Part shown: positions 198-54,908 of the stretch, piece by piece
Position numbering within the stretch: the stretch's first letter is position 1
Layout of the letters: each line of letters begins with the position of its first letter
Assembly (NCBI GenBank): GCA_030447245.1
Contig: JAUJPG010000004.1
Location: 16,843-80,842, forward strand
DNA length: 64,000 nt
Direction of reading: 5' to 3'
DNA from: Chloroflexota bacterium
GTDB lineage: Bacteria; Chloroflexota; UBA6077; JACCZL01
Program-made: the position numbers and the translations under genes
Notes under the pieces: generated by a model
Told to the model about the DNA's origin: nothing
The model's input: only the letters and a program-made list of their open reading frames with translations
Databases searched by the model: none

Positions 198-1493
198 ATG
201 AGCGAGCGTAACGACGGCGGAACGAACGCCCTCGATCAGGCGCGGATCTGGGTCAAGGCCGGCGATGGCGGTAACGGCGCGCTCTCCTTCCGACGCGAGA
301 AGTTCGTCCCACGCGGCGGTCCGGACGGCGGCGATGGCGGCCGCGGCGGAAGCGTCTACCTCCGGGCGGACGCATCGATCGGTACGCTGCTCGAGTTCTC
401 CCACAAGCGGCACTTCAAGGCCGCCCGAGGTGGTCACGGTTCCGGAGGCAAGAAACACGGCAAGACCGGCGAGGACCTGCATATCCGGGTGCCGCCGGGC
501 ACGGTCGTCAGCACCGATGACGGCCGCGTAGTCGCCGACCTCCAGCGTCCGGGCGACGAGGTGATGGTTGGTCGTGCCGGCCGCGGGGGGTTGGGCAACG
601 TCCATTTCGCGACCAGCACCAACCAGGCCCCGCGAGTCGCCCAAAAAGGAGAGCCAGGCGAAGAACGCTGGCTGCGGCTGGAGCTCAAGTCGATCGCGGA
701 CGTCGGCCTGGTCGGCCACCCGAACGCCGGCAAGTCGAGCCTGCTAGCAGCGCTCACCGCGGCGACTCCGAAAGTCGGCGACTACCCGTTCACCACGCTG
801 AGCCCCAACCTGGGCGTCGCCGAACGAGAGGACCTGGCCTTCGTCGTGGCCGACATTCCCGGACTGATCGGCGGCGCGCACCTCGGCGTCGGCCTTGGCC
901 ACCAGTTCCTCCGCCACGTCGAGCGCGCTCGCGTCCTGGTCCACGTCGTCGACGCCTCCGCGCCCGATCCCGACGCCGCCTACCGCGAGGTCCGCGACGA
1001 GCTCCAGCTGTACAATCCGGCGCTGGCCGAGAAGCCCGAGCTGATCGCGCTGAACAAAGTGGACTTGCCGGCGGTCCGCGCCCGCGTCGGCGAGATCCTG
1101 GCCTCTATTGCCGTGGCCGGGCCGAACCGCCGCGCCATTGCCGTCTCGGCGCACACGCTGGCCGGCGTGCCGAAGCTCGTCGAGACCATCGTCGAGACCC
1201 TGACAGCGCTGCCACCACGGCCCGAGTCGCTCGCTCAGTCCATCAAGGTGTACCGCCTGCACGAGGCTCCCGACGAGGACGGGTTCGTGATCGACCGAGA
1301 GGGCGCCGATTTCCGTGTGCGCGGCAAGCGCGTCGAGCGCGTGGTCGCAATGACCGACCTGCAAAATCCGGATGCTGTTGAGATGCTTCAACGCACCTTG
1401 AAGAAGCTCGGTGTGTTTCAGGAGCTCGAAAAGGCCGGTATCCAGTCCGGCCACACCGTCCACATTGGCACCGCGGAGCTGGAGTGGGAATAG
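198..1493 (+). CDS. obg: GTPase Obg/CgtA
   Basis: Translation has the Obg fold N-domain motif [11 protein letters not shown]-binding motifs GHPNAGKSS and DIPGLI, NKVD, and a C-terminal extension; ATG at 198 within track ORF 117..1493. Confidence 0.9.
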
Positions 1494-2656: not shown

Positions 2657-4459
2657 ATGCGCTCAGAAAAGGATGCAGTAGTGAAGCGACCTCTCTCGAT
2701 CGTCGGCACGCTTGCCGTTACCGCCGGACTGCTCGCGGGCACCGTGGTGGCGCCATTCGTCGGAGCCTCCAGCCACCGCGAAGCGCCCCTGATCTCCAAC
2801 GATCCGGCCGCGGACACGACGGACATGTACGTCTTCCGCAGCCCCGACGCGCCCGACACAATTACCGCCATCATGAACGTCTACCCGTTCGGCAAGCCGG
2901 AGCAGGGCCCGAACTTTTACCTGTTCGACCCGAGTGTCCGATATTCGATGCACATTACGAATGACGGCGACGCAAGCGAAGAGGCGCGGCTGGACTTCCA
3001 GTTCCGCACCGAGATCCGAGGGATGTCGTCCGTGTACAACGACGGCCCGATCACCTCGCTCGACGACCCGAACTGGCTGACCCGCCAGTTCTACTCGGTT
3101 GACCTGGTGATGGGCGGCCAGACGACACGGCTCGGCGAGAACTTGCCGGTCCCGCCGGCCAATGTCGGCCCGAAGTCGACCCCGAACTATGAGCAGCTTG
3201 CAAACGCGGCGATCGTCAACATCCCGTCGATCCCCGGCGGCAAGGTCTTCGCCGGCCCCCGCGACGACCCGTTCTTCATCGACATCGGCGCGGCGTTCGA
3301 CCTGTTGAACGTTCGGCGCCCACCCGGCAACCAGGGCGGCGGCGTCGACAACCTGGCCGGGTTCAATGTCCTGTCGATCGCGGTCCAGGTCCCGATCGCG
3401 GCCGTCGGGCGGCCCGAGTGCGACCTCAACGACCCGAGCGACATGGACTGCGTCGTCGGCATGTGGATCACCACCAGCCGCCAGGCCACCCGGGTCCTCC
3501 GTGGTGAGCAAACTCCGGAAAACACCGGTGATTTCGTCCAGGTCGCGCGCCAGAGCGCCGCGCTGGTGAACGAGTTGGTCGTCCCCACTGCGATGAAGGA
3601 CGCCTTCAACGCCTCGAACCCGAATGACGACGCCCGCTTCCTGCCGCTGGTGCAGGACCCGATACCGGCCCAGCTTATCAACGCGGTGTTCGGCATCCCG
3701 GTCCCGCCGGCCCCGCGCGCGGACTTCGTGACGATCTTCCTGACTGGTATTCCGGGGCTGAACCAGCCGCCGGACGTCCAGCCGGCTGAGATCGCCCACC
3801 TCAACGTGGCCATCCCGGTCACGGCGCAGCCGAATCGGTTGGGTCTGCTCGGCAACGACATGCAGGGTTACCCGAACGGCCGCCGTCTCGCAGACGACGT
3901 GACGGACATCTCGCTGCGGGCCTCCGCGGGCGGGACGCCATTCACGCCGGAGTTCAACGGTGCGCCGAACAATCTGCTCGGCGACGGCGTTGACCAGAAT
4001 GACCGGCCGTTCCTCAACACCTTCCCATACCTGGCGACGCCGCATCAGGGGTTTGACCACACCCACGACCGTGGGCAGGGTCAAGCGTCTGGCCCAGCCC
4101 CGGCGTCCAAGCCTACCGCGGCAGCTCCGGCGGGCCCCGCCCCGGCTTCCAAGCCGACAGCCGCCGCGCCACCAGCAGCGGCGGCCCAACCGGCCGCGCC
4201 ACCAGCAGCGGCGGCCCAACCGGCCGCGCAGCCGCGCACCGGCACTTCGGGCGTGGCGGCGAGCGGTGGGATTTATACCGTGCAGCAGGGTGATACGCTG
4301 AGCTCGATTTCTGAAGCCGTGTACGGCACGCCGGACCGCGTCGAAGAAATCCGTTCCGCGAATCCTGAGATCAGCAACCCGGATGTGTTGCAGCCCGGCG
4401 TGGTCTTGACGCTGCCGGCGATGCCGGACAGTAGCGAAGAAGGCGCTCCGAGCGAGTAG
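2657..4459 (+). CDS. secreted DUF4331-like protein with Pro/Ala-rich linker and C-terminal LysM domain
   Basis: N-terminal hydrophobic signal-like segment followed by SSHREAPLI, which I recall as the DUF4331 N-terminal signature; C-terminal YTVQQGDTLSSISEAVYG...LTLP resembles LysM; alternative GTG start at 2681 has an AGGA RBS. Confidence 0.6.
   Translation: MRSEKDAVVKRPLSIVGTLAVTAGLLAGTVVAPFVGASSHREAPLISNDPAADTTDMYVFRSPDAPDTITAIMNVYPFGKPEQGPNFYLFDPSVRYSMHITNDGDASEEARLDFQFRTEIRGMSSVYNDGPITSLDDPNWLTRQFYSVDLVMGGQTTRLGENLPVPPANVGPKSTPNYEQLANAAIVNIPSIPGGKVFAGPRDDPFFIDIGAAFDLLNVRRPPGNQGGGVDNLAGFNVLSIAVQVPIAAVGRPECDLNDPSDMDCVVGMWITTSRQATRVLRGEQTPENTGDFVQVARQSAALVNELVVPTAMKDAFNASNPNDDARFLPLVQDPIPAQLINAVFGIPVPPAPRADFVTIFLTGIPGLNQPPDVQPAEIAHLNVAIPVTAQPNRLGLLGNDMQGYPNGRRLADDVTDISLRASAGGTPFTPEFNGAPNNLLGDGVDQNDRPFLNTFPYLATPHQGFDHTHDRGQGQASGPAPASKPTAAAPAGPAPASKPTAAAPPAAAAQPAAPPAAAAQPAAQPRTGTSGVAASGGIYTVQQGDTLSSISEAVYGTPDRVEEIRSANPEISNPDVLQPGVVLTLPAMPDSSEEGAPSE
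4170..4229. repeat. perfect tandem duplication (about 27-30 bp x2) encoding PPAAAAQPAA in the DUF4331 linker
   Basis: accagcagcggcggcccaaccggccgcg occurs twice in direct tandem. Confidence 0.7.
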
Positions 4460-4547
4460 TCATCCGTTTACACTGTGCGGAGTGGCTCGGGTGGGCGGGT
4501 CGTCGACGGGCGACCCGCTCACCCGATCTTTATGTTGAGGATACCAC

Positions 4548-5780
4548 GTGAGTTTCCGACGTAGACTTGTTGGTCCGATCCTGGAGGGCCGGCGAAGAGT
4601 GCACCTCCGGGTGCAGACCTGCGCGGCTCTGCTAGCGCTGGTTGTCGTCGCGGAAACCGCTCTGCCCACCCTCGCGGCCGGCACCGACTACGACATTGCC
4701 GATGGGCACTACTACGAGCAGGGCACCGGCACCAAGGGCCGCGGATTCGTCGTCGTCGACGATGAGGCGGCGCCACTCTGGGGCGAGCTCCGTCGCCTTG
4801 GCGGCGTCCCTGCAATGGGTTATCCGATTTCGAGCCGATACGCATGCGACGGAGGGGTCTGTCAGGCTTTCCAGTACGCCGTGTTCAAGTGGGGGCCGAC
4901 TGCCAAGAAGGAGGTCGAGCTGCTGCCGGTTTTCGACTGGCTGCACGCCGAAGGACACGACGCCTGGCTCGACGAAGTCTGGGAGGTTCCGCCGATGGAG
5001 CCTGCCGCGGCCGACACGAAGCGGTCAACGACGAACAAGGATCGCGTCGACGACCGCGATCCGGCAGCACTGCTTGAGGAAAATCCGGCGATCAAGTCGG
5101 CATACGCCAAGCTCGGCGGGGCCGCCCCGAGTATCTACGGCCTCCCGCGAGTGTACCGCGCCTCGGAGAAGCAGGCGGTGCTTCGGACTCAGCGCACGGC
5201 GCTAGTCCATTCAGCCAGCGCGCCGGATGGCGTTCGGCGCATTCCGGCCGGCGAAGTGTTCCGGGAGGCCGGCTACGTACCGATCGAGGCACTCGACCCA
5301 GTACGCGGGCCCCGACTCAGCAAGGCGCTGCCGCCAGTGCGGATCAGCATTCCGGATTTAAAGGTCGATGCTGACGTCATTGCCCTCGACATGGGCCCGG
5401 ACGGCGTGCTGCCAACGCCGGACACTGGACGCGTCGTGGCCTGGTACAGCTATGGCGCGCGGCTGGGCGAGCCGGGCAACGCGGTGCTGGCCGGGCACGT
5501 CGATTGGGACCGTGAGCGGGGCGTGTTCTGGGCGCTGCGCGACGCGAAAGCTGGCCAGGTGATTTCCCTGCGTGACGCCAACGGCAAGACGTACGATTAC
5601 AAGGTGCGGTGGGTGGAAGACTTTCCGGTCGATTCGATCGACGGCCTCGAGGCGCTACGACCCCAGCGGAAGGAGGCGCGGCTCACGCTGGTGACCTGCA
5701 GCGGCCGGTTCGACTTCGCGACGCGCTCCTACGAGAGTCGGCGGGTGGTCCGCGCCGCCCTGATCGGCGAGCGTCCGTGA
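4548..5780 (+). CDS. class F sortase-like transpeptidase with extra N-terminal domain
   Basis: Conserved sortase His (LAGHVDW) and catalytic Cys in LTLVTCSG (TLxTC motif), followed by Arg (RRVV); N-terminal signal/TM segment. Confidence 0.7.
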   Translation: MSFRRRLVGPILEGRRRVHLRVQTCAALLALVVVAETALPTLAAGTDYDIADGHYYEQGTGTKGRGFVVVDDEAAPLWGELRRLGGVPAMGYPISSRYACDGGVCQAFQYAVFKWGPTAKKEVELLPVFDWLHAEGHDAWLDEVWEVPPMEPAAADTKRSTTNKDRVDDRDPAALLEENPAIKSAYAKLGGAAPSIYGLPRVYRASEKQAVLRTQRTALVHSASAPDGVRRIPAGEVFREAGYVPIEALDPVRGPRLSKALPPVRISIPDLKVDADVIALDMGPDGVLPTPDTGRVVAWYSYGARLGEPGNAVLAGHVDWDRERGVFWALRDAKAGQVISLRDANGKTYDYKVRWVEDFPVDSIDGLEALRPQRKEARLTLVTCSGRFDFATRSYESRRVVRAALIGERP

Positions 5781-37891: not shown

Positions 37892-40402
37892 GTGGATACG
37901 CCCAACAGAGCACCCGCATGGAGCATTGGCCTGGTGATACGCGTGGTGCGTGGTGTTGCCCTGGTAGTTGGCGTCACCGCCTGGGTCGCGTACCTCGGGC
38001 GGCTGCTCCTCCGCGCGCTGCACATGCTTCAGTTGGAGGGGTATCAATCCGCGCGGTTTCTGCACTGGTCGACGAAGAAGGCGGAGCGCTGGGCGCGGAG
38101 TGACCGCGCCGCGCTCGCGGTGGTCGCGGGGGCGATCGGCCTCGCGGGGCGGTCCGCGCCTGGTGGCCGGCCGGCATTCGCCGCCGCGGTCTGGGCCGTG
38201 ATCGGGGCATGGCTGCTGCGAGGGGCGACGTTTGGAGCGGCCAAGAAGCCGCTGGTGCTGACCCCGCGGGCCAGGCGCCTACTGGCCGGCGAGGCGTTCA
38301 TAGCAAGCGTGGCGGCGATCGGGCCGGCCGCGTGGCTTGCGATCCGCGGGCGGCCAGACGCGGGGGCAGGCCTGTGCGTCGGGATCTCCGCGGCCAGCCT
38401 GTTGGTGCCGACAATCGCGGCAGGCGCGAACGTGCTGCTCTGGCCGATCGAAGAGGGGTTCCGGCGCTACTACCTGCGCGATGCGAAACGGCGCCTGCGG
38501 GCGTGCGGACCGACGGTGATCGGCGTCGCGGGCTCGTACGGCAAGACAAGCACCAAGGAGTTCATCGCCGCGATCCTGGGGCGGCAGCGACGGGTGCTCA
38601 AGGCGCCCGGGTCCTACAACACGCCGATGGGGCTATGTCGGGTGATCCGCGAGCACCTAGAGCCGGGCCACGAGCTGTTCGTCGCGGAGCTGGGCGACTG
38701 GGTACCTGGTGACATCCGCTTTCTTTGCGAACTTGTCGACCCGAAGATCGGGGTGCTGACGACGATCGGACCAGAGCACCTCGAGCGATTTAGAACCCTC
38801 GACCGGGTGGTCCAATCCAAGGCCGAGCTGATCGACGCGCTGCCGCCGGACGGGGTCGCCGTCGTCAACCAGGACGACTCGCTGGTCCGTGGGCTCGGCG
38901 AGCGGGCCTCGGCGCGTGGGCTGCGGGTCGTCCGCTACGGCCTGGGCGACGACGCCGACGTCCAGGCCCGCGACGTGCAGACGACGCGTGACGGTCTCCG
39001 GTTCGTGGTGGACGCGCAAGGCCACGGGGTCGCCGAGCTACGGGTCGGTGTCCTCGGACGGCACAACGTGTCCAACCTCCTGGCGGCGGCGGCAGTGGCG
39101 CTCCAACTGGGGATGTCGCTGGAAGACATCGCGGAGGCGGCGTCGACAATCGAGCCGGTCGAGCACCGCTTGCAGCCGATTCGTGGGACTGGTGGAGTGC
39201 TGGTGATCGACGACGCTTTCAATGCCAACCCTCGCGGAGCCGCCGAGGCGCTCGACGTCCTGGCCGAGCTGGGGACCGGCCCTGATGGCGGACGACGCAT
39301 CCTGGTGACGCCGGGGATGATCGAGCTAGCCGAGCGGGAGTGGGACGAGAACAAGGCGTTCGGGCGCAAGGCGGGCGAGGTCTGCGACGTCGTAATTCTG
39401 GTTGGTCCGAAGCGGGCCAGGCCGATCCTCGCGGGCCTCCGCGTGGCAGGCTTTCCGGCGGACCAGACCCACGTCGTACGCAACCTGGCCGAAGCCACGG
39501 AGCGCCTGCAAGGGCTGGTTCGATCAGGCGACGCGGTGCTGTTCGAGAACGACTTGCCGGACACCTACGACGAGAACGGGACGACCGACAGCCTGGCTAT
39601 GCCGCCAACCGAAACTGTCGAGGGCGAACGCCCCACCGGTTCGGTCATCGTGGACGGCCTACGGGTCACCTACCGCGAGGAGGGCGCGGAGACCGGGCGA
39701 ACACCGGTCGTCGTGCTGCACGGATGGGGAGCCAGCAGCGGGGCCGTCGTTTCGATCCAGCGATGCCTCGGAGGCGAGCGGCGGACGGTCGCGCCGGACC
39801 TGCCGGGCTTCGGCGCGAGCGACCTGCCGCCAGAGATCTGGGGCACGGCCGACTACGCCGCGGCCGTGCGCGCATTTCTGCGGGAGGTGAAGATCGAGCG
39901 GGCCAGCTTCGTCGGCCACTCGCGCGGCGGCGGGATCGCGATCTTTCTGGCGGCGACCGCGCCCGAGCTGGTGGACAAGCTGGTGCTCGTCGACAGCGTT
40001 GGCATTCGGGCGCACCGCGGTCCTGGCTATCGCGCTCGCGTGCTGGCATTCAAGGCCGCGCGGCGGGTGGTCGCCAGTCGGTGGACGCGGAGGATCCAGC
40101 CGCTTCAGGAATGGTTCGAACGGCGGTTCGGGTCGGCGGACTACCGCCAGGCGGGCGCGATGCGCGGAACCCTGGTCCGCCTTGTCAACGAAGATCTGCG
40201 GGTGCTGCTGCCGCGAATTCAGGCGCCGACGTTGCTGATCTGGGGCGACCAGGACGAGGACACGCCGATCTCGGACGGCAGACAGATGGAGGAGCAGATC
40301 CCGGATGCAGGACTGGTCGTGTTCCCGGGCGCCGGGCACTTTTCGTACGCGGACGACCCCGGCCGATTCTGCCGCGTCGTCGACCACTTCCTCAAGAACT
40401 GA
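37892..40402 (+). CDS. Mur ligase family protein (MurF-like) with N-terminal membrane segment and C-terminal alpha/beta-hydrolase domain
   Basis: VIGVAGSYGKTSTKE P-loop, GPEHLERF, HNVSNLLAAAAVA, IDDAFNANP Mur-ligase motifs; then a continuous frame into VVVLHGWGAS...FVGHSRGGGIAIFLA...GAGHFS (GxSxG nucleophile elbow and His); N-terminal 200 aa hydrophobic. Confidence 0.65.
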   Translation: MDTPNRAPAWSIGLVIRVVRGVALVVGVTAWVAYLGRLLLRALHMLQLEGYQSARFLHWSTKKAERWARSDRAALAVVAGAIGLAGRSAPGGRPAFAAAVWAVIGAWLLRGATFGAAKKPLVLTPRARRLLAGEAFIASVAAIGPAAWLAIRGRPDAGAGLCVGISAASLLVPTIAAGANVLLWPIEEGFRRYYLRDAKRRLRACGPTVIGVAGSYGKTSTKEFIAAILGRQRRVLKAPGSYNTPMGLCRVIREHLEPGHELFVAELGDWVPGDIRFLCELVDPKIGVLTTIGPEHLERFRTLDRVVQSKAELIDALPPDGVAVVNQDDSLVRGLGERASARGLRVVRYGLGDDADVQARDVQTTRDGLRFVVDAQGHGVAELRVGVLGRHNVSNLLAAAAVALQLGMSLEDIAEAASTIEPVEHRLQPIRGTGGVLVIDDAFNANPRGAAEALDVLAELGTGPDGGRRILVTPGMIELAEREWDENKAFGRKAGEVCDVVILVGPKRARPILAGLRVAGFPADQTHVVRNLAEATERLQGLVRSGDAVLFENDLPDTYDENGTTDSLAMPPTETVEGERPTGSVIVDGLRVTYREEGAETGRTPVVVLHGWGASSGAVVSIQRCLGGERRTVAPDLPGFGASDLPPEIWGTADYAAAVRAFLREVKIERASFVGHSRGGGIAIFLAATAPELVDKLVLVDSVGIRAHRGPGYRARVLAFKAARRVVASRWTRRIQPLQEWFERRFGSADYRQAGAMRGTLVRLVNEDLRVLLPRIQAPTLLIWGDQDEDTPISDGRQMEEQIPDAGLVVFPGAGHFSYADDPGRFCRVVDHFLKN

Positions 40403-44933: not shown

Positions 44934-45977
44934 GTGAAGCCTACAGGACTCGCTCGAATCGCCCTGACGGCAACGGTCGCGCTCGGCGCCATCTGGAGTG
45001 CGGGCGGCGACGGCGGGCCGAGCACATCGTTCGCCTCGCTCGAGGCGGCGTCGCACCCCGAGGCGGCGCGGCAGGTTGCGACGCCGACGGTACCCGGCCT
45101 ACCTGAGAGCGCTCCGCTGCGCGTCGTCGACACGTTCGACGCCGTCGACAAGGGCGGGCGGGTCGCGCCCGGGCCCCAGGCCATCCCGCCCAACAGGGGT
45201 GACGAGCTCGTCGTGCCGGTCGAGCCCGACGACAACACGGGGTTCACCGACCGGATCAAGCATGACCCGAGCGACCGCATCGAGGACCTGGTCACGACCA
45301 CCGGCCTGTCGGTCATCCCCGAGGCGCTCCGGCCGGGCACGCACCCCTTCCCTGACGAGCCGCCCTTCACGCCGGTCGGGCCGATGGCGAACCCGCACGT
45401 GTGGGGGATGCGCTGGGTAAGCGAGGAACTCGAGGACCGCAGGGGCTATAACGACCCATGCAGGGAAAGCAACTCGACCGACCCGGTGCGCCCGAACTCG
45501 GTCGGCTTTCGCAACGTCAACAAGGTCGACGACCTCTGCAGCCTTAACCCGTTTTACCAGCTGGCTTTCAAGTTCGACTTCAGCACGCTGCGCCAGGCCA
45601 GCTTCCTTCCGATCAGCGCCGCGCTCAAGTTCCACGAAACCGTCTATGAAGAGCGCGATTCAAACGGCAACTATGTTCCCTTCGTCGGATTCCAGAACAC
45701 TTGCTCGCTCCGGCTCGGACGGCCGAATGGGCCCTGGAACGCCCCGCACGTAGGGTACCGAGGGCTCCCGTACACCGACCCACGGGAACAGAACCGGATC
45801 GGCGAGTTCAACGACATTCTGGACTGGGTGGTCACGATGGTTCGGAATCCCGCGGAGGAGGCTAAGGGGCTGATCCTCATCGGCAAGAGCGAGGACCGGA
45901 ACCCCGACAACGCCGCCTGCATGTCCCAGATCTCGAACATCGAGCTCGTGTTCACCTACGTGATCGCGGACCGTTGA
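44934..45977 (+). CDS. secreted Cys-containing hypothetical protein, family A (intact copy)
   Basis: Signal peptide MKPTGLARIALTATVALGAIWSA; conserved LAFKFDFS, CSLRLGRP, ILDWV, GLILIGKSEDRNPDNAACMSQISNIELVFTYVIADR shared with three other copies in the window. Confidence 0.6.
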   Translation: MKPTGLARIALTATVALGAIWSAGGDGGPSTSFASLEAASHPEAARQVATPTVPGLPESAPLRVVDTFDAVDKGGRVAPGPQAIPPNRGDELVVPVEPDDNTGFTDRIKHDPSDRIEDLVTTTGLSVIPEALRPGTHPFPDEPPFTPVGPMANPHVWGMRWVSEELEDRRGYNDPCRESNSTDPVRPNSVGFRNVNKVDDLCSLNPFYQLAFKFDFSTLRQASFLPISAALKFHETVYEERDSNGNYVPFVGFQNTCSLRLGRPNGPWNAPHVGYRGLPYTDPREQNRIGEFNDILDWVVTMVRNPAEEAKGLILIGKSEDRNPDNAACMSQISNIELVFTYVIADR

Positions 45978-46014
45978 GCGCTAGCACCGTGAAGACCGTA
46001 CATCGGAGTTCGAA

Positions 46015-47376
46015 ATGCGACTGACCACGCTCACCCGGGCCGCGCTTGCGGCGACGATCGTCCTCACGCTCGGCGGGCCGGCTCGTCCGGCACGGGCGGA
46101 CGAGTTCACCGTGACGCGCACCGACGACACCACCACCTGCACCCCCGGCGACTGCTCGCTGCGCGGGGCGATCATCGCCGCCAACACCTCGGCCGGACCG
46201 GACGTGATCTTGCTGCCGGCCGGCCTCTACATCCTGACGATCGGCGGCGCGGACGGCGGCGTCCTGGCCGCCAACGACGCCCAGAAAGGGGACCTCGACA
46301 TCGTCAATGGCTCCAGCATCACCATCGTCGGGGATGGCCCCGATACGACGATCATCGACGGCAATGGCGACATGACCCTCGATCGCGTCTTCGACATCGG
46401 CGCGGGCGGCAGGCTCCAGCTCGGGGGCGCGACGATCATGAACGGCCGCGCCGGAGTCGGCTTCCAGAGCCATGCCCACGGCGCCGGCATCCACAACCAC
46501 GGCTCGCTGATCCTGCAGAACGTCGTCATCAGCGACAACCGCGTCATGCTGACCGGCTGGGGCGGGGGCGGCATCACCAACGCGGACGCGCCCCAGAAGG
46601 CCTCGGCGTCGCTGAACAACGTCACCATCAGGGACAACGAGGCTCTCGAAGACACGGGCGGTGGCGCCATCGAGAACCTGAGCTTCCTGCAGCTCGAGAA
46701 CAGCACGCTGGCCAACAATCGAGCGCGCAATGGCGGCGGGATCGAGAACAAGGGAGTCAACGCCCTGGCCGGCCTGACCAACGTGACGATCAGCGATAAC
46801 CGCGCGGTCTCCAACGGGACCCCGACCACCGGCTTCGGCGGCGGTATCTCCAACCGAGACGGCGCGACCCTCTCCATGACCCACGTGACGCTGGCCGGCA
46901 ACAGCGCGGACACCCGCGGGGGTAACCTGGCGGCGCTGGACAAGGGCAAGTCCGTGACGCCCATCAACACGATCTTCGCCGACGGCAGCCCTGCCGATTG
47001 CTTCATCGAGGCGACCGGCGGCTACGTCTCCAACGGCACCAATCTCGCGACCGACGCCAACTGCAACCTGGCCGGCGCGGGCGACCGGCCGGGCGGCCAG
47101 GTGCAGCTCGGACCGTTGGCGGACAACGGCGGCCTGACCCCGACCCGCGCGCTGCTGCCGGCATTCCCTGACCACGGCAACGAAGCGATCGACGCCTGCA
47201 ACCCGGCGTCGTCGACGGACGCCGACCAGCGCGGCGAGCCCCGTCCCAGGGACGGCGACGGCGACGGCACGGCGATCTGTGACATGGGCGCCTACGAGAT
47301 GCAGCGCGCCGAACGCGGGCATGACAACGACAACGAGAACCACGACAACGACAACCATGACAACGACAACGACTAG
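46015..47376 (+). CDS. CSLREA-domain right-handed beta-helix surface protein (choice-of-anchor-type C-terminal region) with Asp/Asn-rich tail
   Basis: Signal peptide, CSLRGAIIAAN motif, repeated N.T....N beta-helix rungs, C-terminal DNGGLTPTRALLP...AIDACNP...DGDGDGTAICDMGAYE, tail HDNDNENHDNDNHDNDND. Confidence 0.7.
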   Translation: MRLTTLTRAALAATIVLTLGGPARPARADEFTVTRTDDTTTCTPGDCSLRGAIIAANTSAGPDVILLPAGLYILTIGGADGGVLAANDAQKGDLDIVNGSSITIVGDGPDTTIIDGNGDMTLDRVFDIGAGGRLQLGGATIMNGRAGVGFQSHAHGAGIHNHGSLILQNVVISDNRVMLTGWGGGGITNADAPQKASASLNNVTIRDNEALEDTGGGAIENLSFLQLENSTLANNRARNGGGIENKGVNALAGLTNVTISDNRAVSNGTPTTGFGGGISNRDGATLSMTHVTLAGNSADTRGGNLAALDKGKSVTPINTIFADGSPADCFIEATGGYVSNGTNLATDANCNLAGAGDRPGGQVQLGPLADNGGLTPTRALLPAFPDHGNEAIDACNPASSTDADQRGEPRPRDGDGDGTAICDMGAYEMQRAERGHDNDNENHDNDNHDNDND

Positions 47377-52477: not shown

Positions 52478-52525
52478 GCGGGGGACTTGAAGCCCCCGAC
52501 GGGGAGGGGGCATGTGCCCCCTCCC
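52478..52525. terminator. two adjacent GC-rich hairpins between convergent lemA and the coxL-like gene
   Basis: cgggggacttgaagcccccg and the 24-bp palindrome ggggagggggca|tgccccctcccc. Confidence 0.35.
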
Positions 52526-52559
52526 CGAACCGGCGAGACCACGTGGCCTTTGGATCCGA

Positions 52560-54908
52560 TTATGCCTGGCCGTTCGAGCCACTGGCAGCGCGGATAGCCT
52601 TCCAGACCCGCACGGACGTGGCGGGCATGTCGAAGTCCTGGATCCCGAGCGGGAGCAGTGCGTCGACGACAGCGCTCCGGAGAGTCGGGGTGCTGCCGAT
52701 CGTGCCGGCCTCGCCGACACCCTTGACGCCGAGCGGGTTGCGGTCGGTCGTCGTCACCGTCCGATCAAGCTCGAACATCGGCATCATGTGCGCGGTTGGC
52801 ACGGAGTAGTCGTTGAGCGTCCCGCTGACCAGCTGGCCGCTCTCGTCGTAGACGACCTCTTCGCACAGCGCCTGCGCGACACCCTGAACGATGCCGCCGT
52901 GACGTTGGCCGTCGAGCAGCAGCGGGTTGATCACATTACCAACGTCGTCGACGGCGATGAAGCGGCGGAGCGTGACGCGCCCGGTGTCCGGGTCGATATC
53001 GACAACCGCGACGTGGACGCCGAACGGGAAGACCGAATCGTCCGGCTTGAAAAAGCGGGTGGATTCCAGGCCCGGCTCGTCGCCGGTCGGGACGTTGCCG
53101 CCGTAGGCCGCGGCAGCGATCTCGCCGAGGGTGACCGCCTTGCCGGCGGCGCCGCGGACGGCGAAGGTGCCGTTGCTCCGCTCGACGTCATCCGGCGCGG
53201 CCTCGAGCAGGTGGGCCGCGATCCGCACGGCCTTGTCCCTGACCTGGTCGACGGCCATCACCATCGCCCCGCCGCCGACCGCCGCGCTGCGACTCCCGAA
53301 CGTCCCGATGCCGCTCTGGGTCATGGCGGTGTCGCCGTGGAGGACGACGATGTCGTCGATGCCGACGCCGAGGCTGTCGGCGACGATCTGGGCCATCGAC
53401 GTCTCGGTTCCCTGGCCGTGTGGCGACGTGCCGGTGTGGACCATCACCTTACCGGACGGCTCGACGCGGACCGTGGCGCTCTCCCAGGGACCGAAGCCGC
53501 AAATCTCGACGTAGGCAGCCAGCCCGATGCCCATCAGCTTGCCCTGCGCACGGGCCGTCTGCTGCTCCTCGCGGAGCTGCCGGTAGCCCGAAACTTCGAG
53601 CGCCTTGTCGAGCGCCTTGACGTACTCGCCGGTGTCGTAGTTGGCGCCCAGGCCATTGGAGTAGGGGAACTTCTCGGGTGGAATGAAGTTGATTCGACGA
53701 ATCTCGGCCGGGTCTTTGCCGAGCTCGTGGCCGATCTTGTCCATCAGGCATTCGAGGAGGTAGGTCGCCTCGGGGCGGCCGGCTCCGCGGTAGGCGCCGA
53801 CGGGCGTCTTGTTGGTCAGCACGCCCTTGAGCGTGAAGTGGATGTTGGGGATGTCGTATGGGCCGGGCATCATCATCCCGGTCAGCATCCCCATTAGGGG
53901 CGAGAGGTACTGGTAGTAGCCCCCGATGTCGCAAATAGCGTCGACGTGGATCGCCGTGACGCGGCCGTCGCCGGTGATCGCGGCCTCGACAATGTCAACC
54001 TGCCCGCGGCCCTGCATCGCGGCCTGGAAATTCTCGGAGCGCGTCTCAGACCACTTGACGGGACGGGAAAGGCGCATCGCGGCGATCGCGGCAAGGGTCT
54101 CCTCAGGCGAGACGTCGACCTTGTTGCCAAAGCCGCCGCCGACCTCCGGGGCGATGACGCGTACCTTGTTCTCCGGCACGCCGAGCAGGACGGCAAGCTT
54201 CGTCTTCAGGCCATGCGGGATCTGGGTGGACGACCACATCGTCAGCTCGCCGGAGTCACCCGGGCGGCCCGGCCGCCAGTCGGTGACGCAGCCGCGGGTC
54301 TCCATGGCGACGGCGAAGACGCGCTGATTGACGACCCGCAGCTTGACGACCCGCTCGGCGTTGGCGAACGCGGCGTCCGGATCGCCGACCTTACGGTCCT
54401 GGGTGTGACCGAGGTTCGTCCCGAACTCTTCGTACAGCAGCGGCGCCCCTGGAGCAAGGCCCGCCTCCGGGTCGACCACCGCCGCGGGCAGCGGCTCGTA
54501 GTCGACCTCCACCAGGGCGGCCGCGTCACGGGCGGCATAGCGCGTCTCGGCGATGACGGCCGCGACCGGGTCGCCGACGTAGCGGACCTTGTCGGTCGCG
54601 AGCGGCCCGCGCTCCATATTCTTGACGTCGCTGAATGGATCGAAGGCGAACTCATACGGAAGCGGACCGGTGGTGGAGCCTTCGAGGTCCTTGGCTGTGA
54701 GGACGGCCAGGACTCCGGGCACCCCGAGCGCGGCGGCTGTGTCGATGCCGTTGACGCGAGCATGGCCGTGCGGGCTCCTGACGAAGATCAGGTGGGCCAG
54801 GCCCGGGAGCTGGAGGTCGTCAACGTAGGTGGACGACCCGGTGATCAGGCGCGGGTCCTCGCGCCGCTTGATTGGTTGACCGAGCATCTTGGGTGTTGCG
54901 ACTGTCAT
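52560..54908 (-). CDS. molybdopterin-dependent oxidoreductase large subunit (xanthine dehydrogenase/CoxL family, AYRGAGR type)
   Basis: 782 aa; GQPIKRREDPRLITG N-terminus, VGAYRGAGRPEATYL active-site loop, MoCo-binding C-terminal domains. Confidence 0.8.
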   Translation of the reverse strand: MTVATPKMLGQPIKRREDPRLITGSSTYVDDLQLPGLAHLIFVRSPHGHARVNGIDTAAALGVPGVLAVLTAKDLEGSTTGPLPYEFAFDPFSDVKNMERGPLATDKVRYVGDPVAAVIAETRYAARDAAALVEVDYEPLPAAVVDPEAGLAPGAPLLYEEFGTNLGHTQDRKVGDPDAAFANAERVVKLRVVNQRVFAVAMETRGCVTDWRPGRPGDSGELTMWSSTQIPHGLKTKLAVLLGVPENKVRVIAPEVGGGFGNKVDVSPEETLAAIAAMRLSRPVKWSETRSENFQAAMQGRGQVDIVEAAITGDGRVTAIHVDAICDIGGYYQYLSPLMGMLTGMMMPGPYDIPNIHFTLKGVLTNKTPVGAYRGAGRPEATYLLECLMDKIGHELGKDPAEIRRINFIPPEKFPYSNGLGANYDTGEYVKALDKALEVSGYRQLREEQQTARAQGKLMGIGLAAYVEICGFGPWESATVRVEPSGKVMVHTGTSPHGQGTETSMAQIVADSLGVGIDDIVVLHGDTAMTQSGIGTFGSRSAAVGGGAMVMAVDQVRDKAVRIAAHLLEAAPDDVERSNGTFAVRGAAGKAVTLGEIAAAAYGGNVPTGDEPGLESTRFFKPDDSVFPFGVHVAVVDIDPDTGRVTLRRFIAVDDVGNVINPLLLDGQRHGGIVQGVAQALCEEVVYDESGQLVSGTLNDYSVPTAHMMPMFELDRTVTTTDRNPLGVKGVGEAGTIGSTPTLRSAVVDALLPLGIQDFDMPATSVRVWKAIRAASGSNGQA

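Follow-up and report, generated by a model that had tools for sequence, protein, structure and literature searches.

A membrane-anchored MurF-type ligase fused in frame to a conserved α/β-hydrolase in Chloroflexota

The 64,000-nucleotide stretch of a Chloroflexota bacterium genome analysed here (contig JAUJPG010000004.1, in the following called the window) carries on its forward strand an uninterrupted gene for a three-part protein, in which an N-terminal membrane domain, the central and C-terminal domains of a MurF-type ligase and a complete α/β-hydrolase succeed each other in one polypeptide chain. Both this architecture and the fusion are real. The protein is rather probably a membrane-tethered MurF-type D-Ala-D-Ala-adding enzyme joined to a conserved serine-hydrolase partner, and far from being an isolated oddity it represents, in fused form, a large and as yet undescribed family of MurF variants, termed transmembrane MurF (TM-MurF) here. 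The parts of this reading are held with different confidence: a MurF-like function of the ligase is quite probable, and any specific chemistry of the hydrolase can be proposed with low confidence only.

An earlier interpretation of the DNA letters alone (the sequence-only reading) had described a membrane N-terminus, a MurF core and an in-frame α/β-hydrolase, and this layout is correct as judged from Pfam and from the reading frame, which is free of stop codons at the junction of MurF and hydrolase (Table 1). Pfam detects Mur_ligase_M (PF08245) at residues 212–403 (E = 4e-42), Mur_ligase_C (PF02875) at residues 425–551 (3e-14) and Abhydrolase_1 at residues 605–823 (2e-29). The Mur-ligase motifs of the central and C-terminal domains are intact, as had been stated, with both profiles matched and the conserved motifs present, and the hydrolase domain is likewise complete with the three motifs quoted for it, HGWG (610–613), GHSRGG (675–680) and GAGHF (813–817). 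The true translation start is probably the GTG at 37934 (codon 15), leading to a product of 822 amino acids, because the 822-residue database model P0001 starts there, a GGAG is located 10 nt upstream and most of the aligned homologues begin at this position; P0001, deposited at NCBI, is 100% identical to the window protein. The structure prediction that the sequence-only reading had proposed yields a confident full-length AlphaFold model (mean predicted local distance difference test score, pLDDT, of 91.5), in which a disordered linker (residues 563–578) lies between ligase and hydrolase. The junction that had been singled out for scrutiny (39590–39610) falls within this low-confidence linker (nt 39578–39625). 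Rfam as well as promoter and terminator scans around the fused gene gave no significant match.

With respect to the ligase, all top ten Foldseek matches are MurF structures, the best one being A. baumannii MurF (5e-26, 29% identity over 370 columns), and in a phmmer search of the PDB the MurF entries are found at 1e-28 to 1e-38, with MurC, MurD and MurE at 1e-15 or weaker. The murF profile TIGR01143 matches the window protein with 230.6 bits, which is under its cutoff of 288.6, and aligns only from model position 65 onwards; the unfused relatives reach 236–262 bits and thus likewise stay below the cutoff. By these rankings the ligase is assigned to the MurF clade. Its core contains the motifs AELGD, GPEHLERF, VNQDD, GRHN, DDAFNANP and TPGMIELAE and terminates in FENDLPDTY, which is specific to the family (signature FENDLPDxY). 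Across 112 sequences the P-loop, E266, H296, N326, D328, R390-H391-N392, D440-D441-x-x-N-x-N-P (N444, N446, P447) and TPGMxEL are either invariant or conserved to at least 90%. Two of the homologues, P0056 and P0115, have an alanine where K310 (SKAEL) aligns, their sequences being RAEFEL and LAESEL; we take this position to be that of the carbamylated lysine of MurD/E/F, for which the neighbouring glutamate could presumably substitute as in MurC. A ligase of the CapB/PgsB or cyanophycin-synthetase type was considered as well and is ruled out, as MurF ranks first by a wide margin in NCBIfam and in the PDB; CphA reaches only about 50 bits in the TM-MurF relatives, and CapB is absent from both rankings.

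The region preceding the ligase core gives no match in Pfam even at E ≤ 10, PF01225, the MurF N-domain, included, and it consists of five hydrophobic helices, so that the replacement of the canonical N-domain by about 200 hydrophobic residues, as postulated by the sequence-only reading, is confirmed. A hidden canonical MurF N-domain within residues 1–205 is ruled out by the same lack of any Pfam match together with the late onset of the TIGR01143 alignment. The membrane domain has no relative in Pfam or the PDB, its family is not covered by any Pfam or NCBIfam model, and among 1.84 billion representative sequences searched with phmmer it occurs only N-terminal to MurF cores, apart from fragments. 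The AlphaFold model of the isolated domain is very confident (pLDDT 94.2, predicted template modelling score 0.86) and places the helices at residues 12–48, 70–88, 93–111, 125–151 and 157–205. Averaged over 100 sequences, lysine and arginine together number 5.6 in loop 36–69, 3.4 in loop 112–124 and 5.4 in the segment following the fifth helix, compared to 0.9 at the N-terminus, 0.5 in loop 89–92 and 1.3 in loop 152–156. These counts follow the positive-inside rule, and five transmembrane helices are therefore predicted, the N-terminus lying outside the cell and the C-terminal end inside. The conserved motifs of the domain (LHxLQLEGY..R..W, AKKPLVxTxRAxRL and P-x-E) are all located on the cytoplasmic side. 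The basic loop KKPLVLTPRARRL is a candidate for contacts to pyrophosphate or substrate, and the basic cytoplasmic loops may stand in for the missing domain 1 by holding the substrate at its diphosphate end.

The genomic context of the family was surveyed with one genome per GTDB species, which returned at least 591 species loci; detailed counts refer to the best 80 of them or to a set of 85 loci, and flanks of ±10 kb were examined. The best 80 loci belong to Poribacteria, Bacillota, Bacteroidota, Chloroflexota, Acidobacteriota and others, hence to at least five phyla, with the Bacillota represented by Sedimentibacter, Peptoniphilus, Sporosalibacterium, many Clostridia and a few Bacillaceae (L019, L029, L043) and the Bacteroidota including Muribaculaceae. 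An α/β-hydrolase of about 255 amino acids is encoded directly upstream of a TM-MurF of about 530–550 amino acids in 73 of the best 80 loci, and by the coordinates of the longest open reading frames many of these pairs overlap by a few bases or nearly touch. Clustering of the flanking reading frames further shows that a D-Ala-D-Ala ligase (Ddl) of about 390–410 amino acids adjoins TM-MurF in 64 of 85 loci, in nearly all of them downstream and on the same strand. From the conserved adjacency of both neighbours it follows that the unit is a three-gene module composed of hydrolase, TM-MurF and Ddl, and the window gene is a permuted and fused form of it. The hydrolase and TM-MurF stay adjacent in three different gene orders as well as in the fusion.

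A complete division and cell wall (dcw) cluster surrounds the module in ten Poribacteria loci and in L001, a contig of 5.8 Mb; the gene order of this cluster is mraW-ftsL-ftsI-murE-[hydrolase]-[TM-MurF]-ddl-mraY-murD-ftsW-murG-murC-ftsQ-ftsA. Being placed between murE and mraY, the module therefore sits exactly in the murF position. In one of the Chloroflexota loci (L079) mraY follows immediately after TM-MurF. The Tissierellales (L017, L032, L041) harbor the module between H+-pyrophosphatase and rnr-smpB, downstream of gap-pgk-tpi-pgm-eno; we take B. subtilis to have secG-est(yvaK)-rnr-smpB at the equivalent place, and the esterase beside rnr may be related. A second match at the level of MurF is absent from the flanks of all 85 loci. 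The separate canonical murF for which the sequence-only reading had proposed to look was searched for in the window in all six frames, and neither a second Mur ligase nor a second copy of the hydrolase was found there. The Ddl proteins encoded with the module (window and L001–L079) belong to a subfamily whose Gly/Lys-rich insertion is variable; it is located at residues ~276–310 of the window protein, follows a conserved DKY motif and precedes a conserved GM..R.IPA, and the window version of this insertion is SANGKGKRQRVGAKGAGDGDGGMAGADRR. A metagenome-assembled genome of the Clostridiaceae encodes a cyanophycin-synthetase-like protein with ATP-grasp and Mur ligase domains 8 kb upstream of its module (L013:2-2185).

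All 77 module hydrolases compared retain the triad Ser677, Asp788 and His816 and the oxyanion motif HGWG, and the same is true for the family-specific lid residues S748, D750, Y751 and R758. Because of this conservation the hydrolase domain, which is also modelled confidently by AlphaFold2, is predicted to be almost certainly active in catalysis. The upstream module hydrolases are 42–65% identical to the window domain, compared to 29% for an unrelated α/β-hydrolase at L002, and together with the window domain they appear as one orthologous group. The best curated family for the stand-alone members is the EstV family lipase (NF058580), with 120–145 bits at an equivalog cutoff of 300; the window domain reaches 93.8 bits, and several α/β-hydrolase families score about equally well on it. 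Its nearest solved structures are PlaF, polyhydroxybutyrate depolymerase and assorted esterases. In H. pylori the genes are presumably arranged as ddlA-estV-murF (HP0738-0740). For EstV itself (H. pylori HP0739) the only known activity is that of a short-chain carboxylesterase, as summarised in PMC3741291. The C. jejuni genes ddl (Cj0798c), Cj0796c (the α/β-hydrolase) and murF (Cj0795c) are neighbours, with Cj0796c situated between the other two; deletion of Cj0796c was unsuccessful, its abundance parallels MurF abundance, and the authors describe its role as not established (PMC5530802). In an acidobacterial locus (L045:8942-10765) the hydrolase upstream of TM-MurF is contained in a reading frame of 607 amino acids, with the domain at residues 357–602; since this is the longest possible reading frame, it represents either a long N-terminal extension or an over-called start.

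A search for the same fusion, again proposed with the sequence-only reading, was carried out in 5.8 billion proteins and recovered the identical three-part architecture in at least 27 divergent protein clusters of 800–905 amino acids with 53–71% identity. They derive from NCBI, ENA, JGI and Logan assemblies and, where named, are labelled Chloroflexota. In the alignment their linkers vary in both length and sequence, yet all of them are in frame. Codon composition and GC content are continuous across the junction in the window, and two proteins (P0036 and P0048) resemble frameshifted versions. The closest unfused relatives, L085 (70% identity) and L086 (65%), show the order TM-MurF, hydrolase, ddl: TM-MurF ends with a stop codon and is followed, after a spacer of 63 or 21 bp, by a separate gene for a hydrolase of 270–279 amino acids and then by ddl, and in L085 the genes glgP and speE lie upstream as in the window. 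The linker of the window protein (...SLAMPPTETVEGE...) and the N-terminal residues of the L086 hydrolase (MPAELPPAETVRE...) are homologous, from which it follows that the fusion came about through loss of stop codon and spacer; the ancestral hydrolase start Met570 (ATG, 39599–39601) is still kept in frame within the linker. The fusion thus appears to have arisen in one Chloroflexota clade from two adjacent genes, which most other lineages keep as a conserved, operon-like unit with ddl. When the ligase regions are arranged in a distance tree, calculated without support values, fused and unfused forms are interleaved, which suggests repeated fusion or fission.

Due to the N-out/C-in topology of TM-MurF a cytoplasmic hydrolase could presumably be fused only at its C-terminus, and for the same reason the permuted gene order would be the one found fused, with no fusion seen for the common order of hydrolase followed by TM-MurF. 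Internal initiation at Met570 might in addition yield the hydrolase as a separate protein; no obvious Shine-Dalgarno sequence is present upstream of this codon. In the 63-bp spacer between TM-MurF and hydrolase of L085 a perfect 17-bp inverted repeat is found (L085:7768-7825, GGCGAAGCATTCGCGCA ... TGCGCGAATGCTTCGCC), the 3′ arm of which includes the GTG start codon of the hydrolase, and this repeat could form a hairpin controlling hydrolase translation.

In order to compare the window protein to known systems, canonical MurF (UDP-MurNAc-tripeptide:D-Ala-D-Ala ligase, EC 6.3.2.10; PDB codes 4QF5 from A. baumannii, 4CVK from P. aeruginosa and 1GG4 from E. coli) has to be considered in the first place. 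Structural similarity comprises the central and C-terminal domains, with about 29% identity and all conserved Mur-ligase motifs, and is accompanied by the adjacency to ddl and by the occupation of the murE–mraY slot in relatives of the window gene. In contrast to canonical MurF, the window protein lacks the soluble uridine diphosphate (UDP)-binding domain PF01225 and possesses the five-helix membrane domain instead, carries the P-loop GSYGKTSTK and the FENDLPDxY signature of its own family, remains under the TIGR01143 cutoff and bears a C-terminal hydrolase. With EstV (HP0739, NF058580) it shares the α/β fold and the Ser-Asp-His triad, and also the genomic placement exemplified by Cj0796c between ddl and murF; contrary to EstV and Cj0796c, its hydrolase is covalently joined to the ligase and scores far below the 300-bit cutoff. 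Cooperating steps of peptidoglycan precursor synthesis are hard-wired in one polypeptide in MurE-MurF (8F5D), MurC-Ddl and MurF-alanine racemase (NF008897) as well, whereas these fusions are soluble and combine known biosynthetic partners, and the window protein is an integral membrane protein with a hydrolase partner. PlaF from P. aeruginosa (PA2949, PDB code 6I8W), a membrane-anchored phospholipase A1, is the best solved match to the hydrolase domain (sequence E-value 5e-22) and is likewise an α/β-hydrolase held at the cytoplasmic membrane. However, the identity amounts to 26%, PlaF has an N-terminal transmembrane helix of its own and no link to Mur ligases, and the likeness may be at the level of the fold only.

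If the favoured reading is correct, the enzyme would add D-Ala-D-Ala during the synthesis of peptidoglycan precursors, at the cytoplasmic face of the membrane. The dipeptide would be supplied by the neighbouring Ddl, as we presume, the conserved basic cytoplasmic loops would assume the substrate binding of the lost domain 1, and the ligase product would be passed on to MraY, next to which the ligase would work at the membrane. The hydrolase would be an obligate cytoplasmic partner in the same pathway and is probably an unrecognised participant in cell-wall precursor synthesis. Our best guess, which we hold weakly, is an esterase or peptidase that edits or trims a precursor at the surface of the membrane; a further candidate role is to act on some lipid-linked species. 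A functional coupling of the two activities on a peptidoglycan precursor, considered possible by the sequence-only reading, receives indirect support from the conservation of the module across phyla and from the linkage in C. jejuni.

Several observations weigh against this reading. The acceptor substrate could differ from that of MurF, since the profile score is under the murF cutoff and the UDP-binding domain is missing. The nearest relatives of the hydrolase are generic short-chain esterases and lipases, which give no clue to its substrate. The clade to which the window belongs has no placement in a dcw cluster, nor are there dcw genes elsewhere in the window, and the search for a canonical murF covered the 64-kb window together with 10 kb on either side at the loci. 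Bacillaceae normally carry a canonical ddl-murF pair, and the module found in a few of them may be a paralogue there.

Such a paralogue could also be the general case. In this main rival reading the TM-MurF would differ from the housekeeping MurF and be a second ligase, which uses a lipid-linked acceptor such as undecaprenyl-PP-MurNAc-tripeptide (lipid I/II minus the terminal dipeptide) and attaches D-Ala-D-Ala or another amine to it, with a canonical murF elsewhere in the genome; the membrane domain would bind polyprenyl-pyrophosphate instead of UDP, and the hydrolase would prepare or recycle the substrate, for instance by cutting a tetrapeptide down to a tripeptide. The exact exchange of the UDP-binding domain for a polytopic membrane domain with invariant basic residues at the cytoplasmic interface is in agreement with this proposal, as are the sub-cutoff TIGR01143 score, the sporadic occurrence in Bacillaceae (L019, L029, L043) and the fact that the solved protein closest to the hydrolase by sequence, PlaF, is a membrane phospholipase. 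We nevertheless regard it as unlikely, because dcw clusters of the Poribacteria type hold the module between murE and mraY with no other murF in between, no canonical MurF-level match exists in the flanks of any of the 85 loci, and the Tissierellales module is embedded among housekeeping genes (glycolysis, rnr, smpB).

The hydrolase could alternatively be a generic family V, EstV-like esterase without any role in the cell wall, brought next to and finally into the ligase by operon hitch-hiking. This would fit its best matches, which are generic esterases, and the characterisation of EstV solely as a short-chain carboxylesterase, as summarised in PMC3741291. It is nevertheless improbable in view of an adjacency that survives at least five phyla, three gene orders and fusion, of the single orthologous group with its family-specific invariant lid residues, and of the C. 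jejuni data, in which the hydrolase is linked with the abundance of MurF and may be essential (PMC5530802). Still less credit is given to an artefact of assembly or sequencing, the lost stop codon suspected by the sequence-only reading, by which two truly separate genes would merely look like one. Close relatives do have separate genes with a spacer of merely 21–63 bp, the ancestral start methionine persists in the linker, and the frameshifted appearance of P0036 and P0048 demonstrates that errors occur in this gene region. This explanation is nonetheless rejected as very improbable: the 27 clusters come from four independent data sources and are uninterrupted, with in-frame linkers of differing length, unfused intermediates exist in close relatives, P0001 is identical to the window protein over all 822 residues, and neither codon composition nor GC content changes over the junction. 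The membrane-tethered D-Ala-D-Ala-adding enzyme with its serine-hydrolase partner hence remains the favoured interpretation.

Table 1. Features of the fused gene and its downstream neighbour (nucleotide positions in the window).
Feature	Residues	Position	Strand	Remarks
Whole fused open reading frame	836 aa	37892–40402	+	GTG start; stop codon included
N-terminal membrane domain	1–205	37892–38506	+	five transmembrane helices, predicted, in place of MurF domain 1
LQLEGY motif	46–51	38027–38044	+	cytoplasmic face; Q47 and Y51 invariant
Basic cytoplasmic loop KKPLVLTPRARRL	118–130	38243–38281	+	K119, T124, R126, R129 at least 90% conserved
WP[IV]EE motif		38441–38455	+	cytoplasmic end of fifth helix; P185, E187 at least 90% conserved
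MurF-type ligase core (ATP-binding central domain plus C-terminal domain)	206–562	38507–39577	+	profile, fold and motif matches
P-loop GSYGKTSTK	G214–K222	38531–38557	+	motif in ligase core
Interdomain linker	563–578	39578–39625	+	disordered, 16 residues, pLDDT about 40
EstV-like α/β-hydrolase domain	579–836	39626–40399	+	Pfam, predicted structure, conserved motifs
Oxyanion motif HGWG	610–613		+	hydrolase domain
Catalytic Ser677		39920–39922	+	in H-S-x-G-G; conserved triad
Catalytic Asp788		40253–40255	+	conserved triad
Catalytic His816		40337–40339	+	conserved triad
Ddl (D-Ala-D-Ala ligase)	410 aa	40536–41768	+	NF002528, 348 bits vs cutoff 262

Elsewhere in the window (2657–5780) a DUF4331 protein of 600 amino acids with a C-terminal LysM domain is followed by a sortase-domain protein (410 amino acids), and the two may constitute a pair of cell-surface protein and sortase. 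Three long open reading frames of 347, 453 and 461 amino acids at 44934–47376 and 52512–53897 have no Pfam match at 1e-5; in this sequence of 68% GC they may be spurious or novel.

The sequence-only reading had noted that the architecture was not seen described, and our literature searches, one of which was obscured by papers on muscle MuRF, likewise turned up no account of a membrane MurF, and none of the module apart from the remark on C. jejuni; a phylogeny of pseudomurein and Mur ligases does not mention a membrane form of MurF. In the databases unfused forms are labelled 'MurF' and fused forms only 'alpha/beta fold hydrolase', and the labels of the fused proteins point to a systematic annotation problem. 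MurF is the textbook example of a soluble, essential enzyme and a target for antibiotics. Here, a family of at least 591 species loci presents it as an integral membrane protein devoid of the nucleotide-binding domain, and the fused protein provides Rosetta-stone evidence for a physical cooperation of ligase and hydrolase. This raises the questions of what role hydrolases of the EstV/Cj0796c type play in precursor synthesis and whether D-Ala-D-Ala is added at the membrane. Abundant gut Muribaculaceae and Clostridia are among the carriers, and a pathogen would be concerned as well if the link to the ddl-hydrolase-murF cluster of C. jejuni holds. A more far-reaching proposal, which we consider a doubtful one at present, is that many phyla entrust the last cytoplasmic step in making the peptidoglycan precursor to an integral-membrane MurF with a new membrane domain in exchange for the UDP-binding one, which may act on, or hand over to, lipid-linked intermediates and would require a dedicated serine hydrolase for a novel, possibly essential step such as editing or trimming of the precursor. 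If true, this would bring a new enzyme into a pathway that is considered complete, and it would explain the apparently essential, uncharacterised hydrolase of Campylobacter together with the related hydrolase of Helicobacter.

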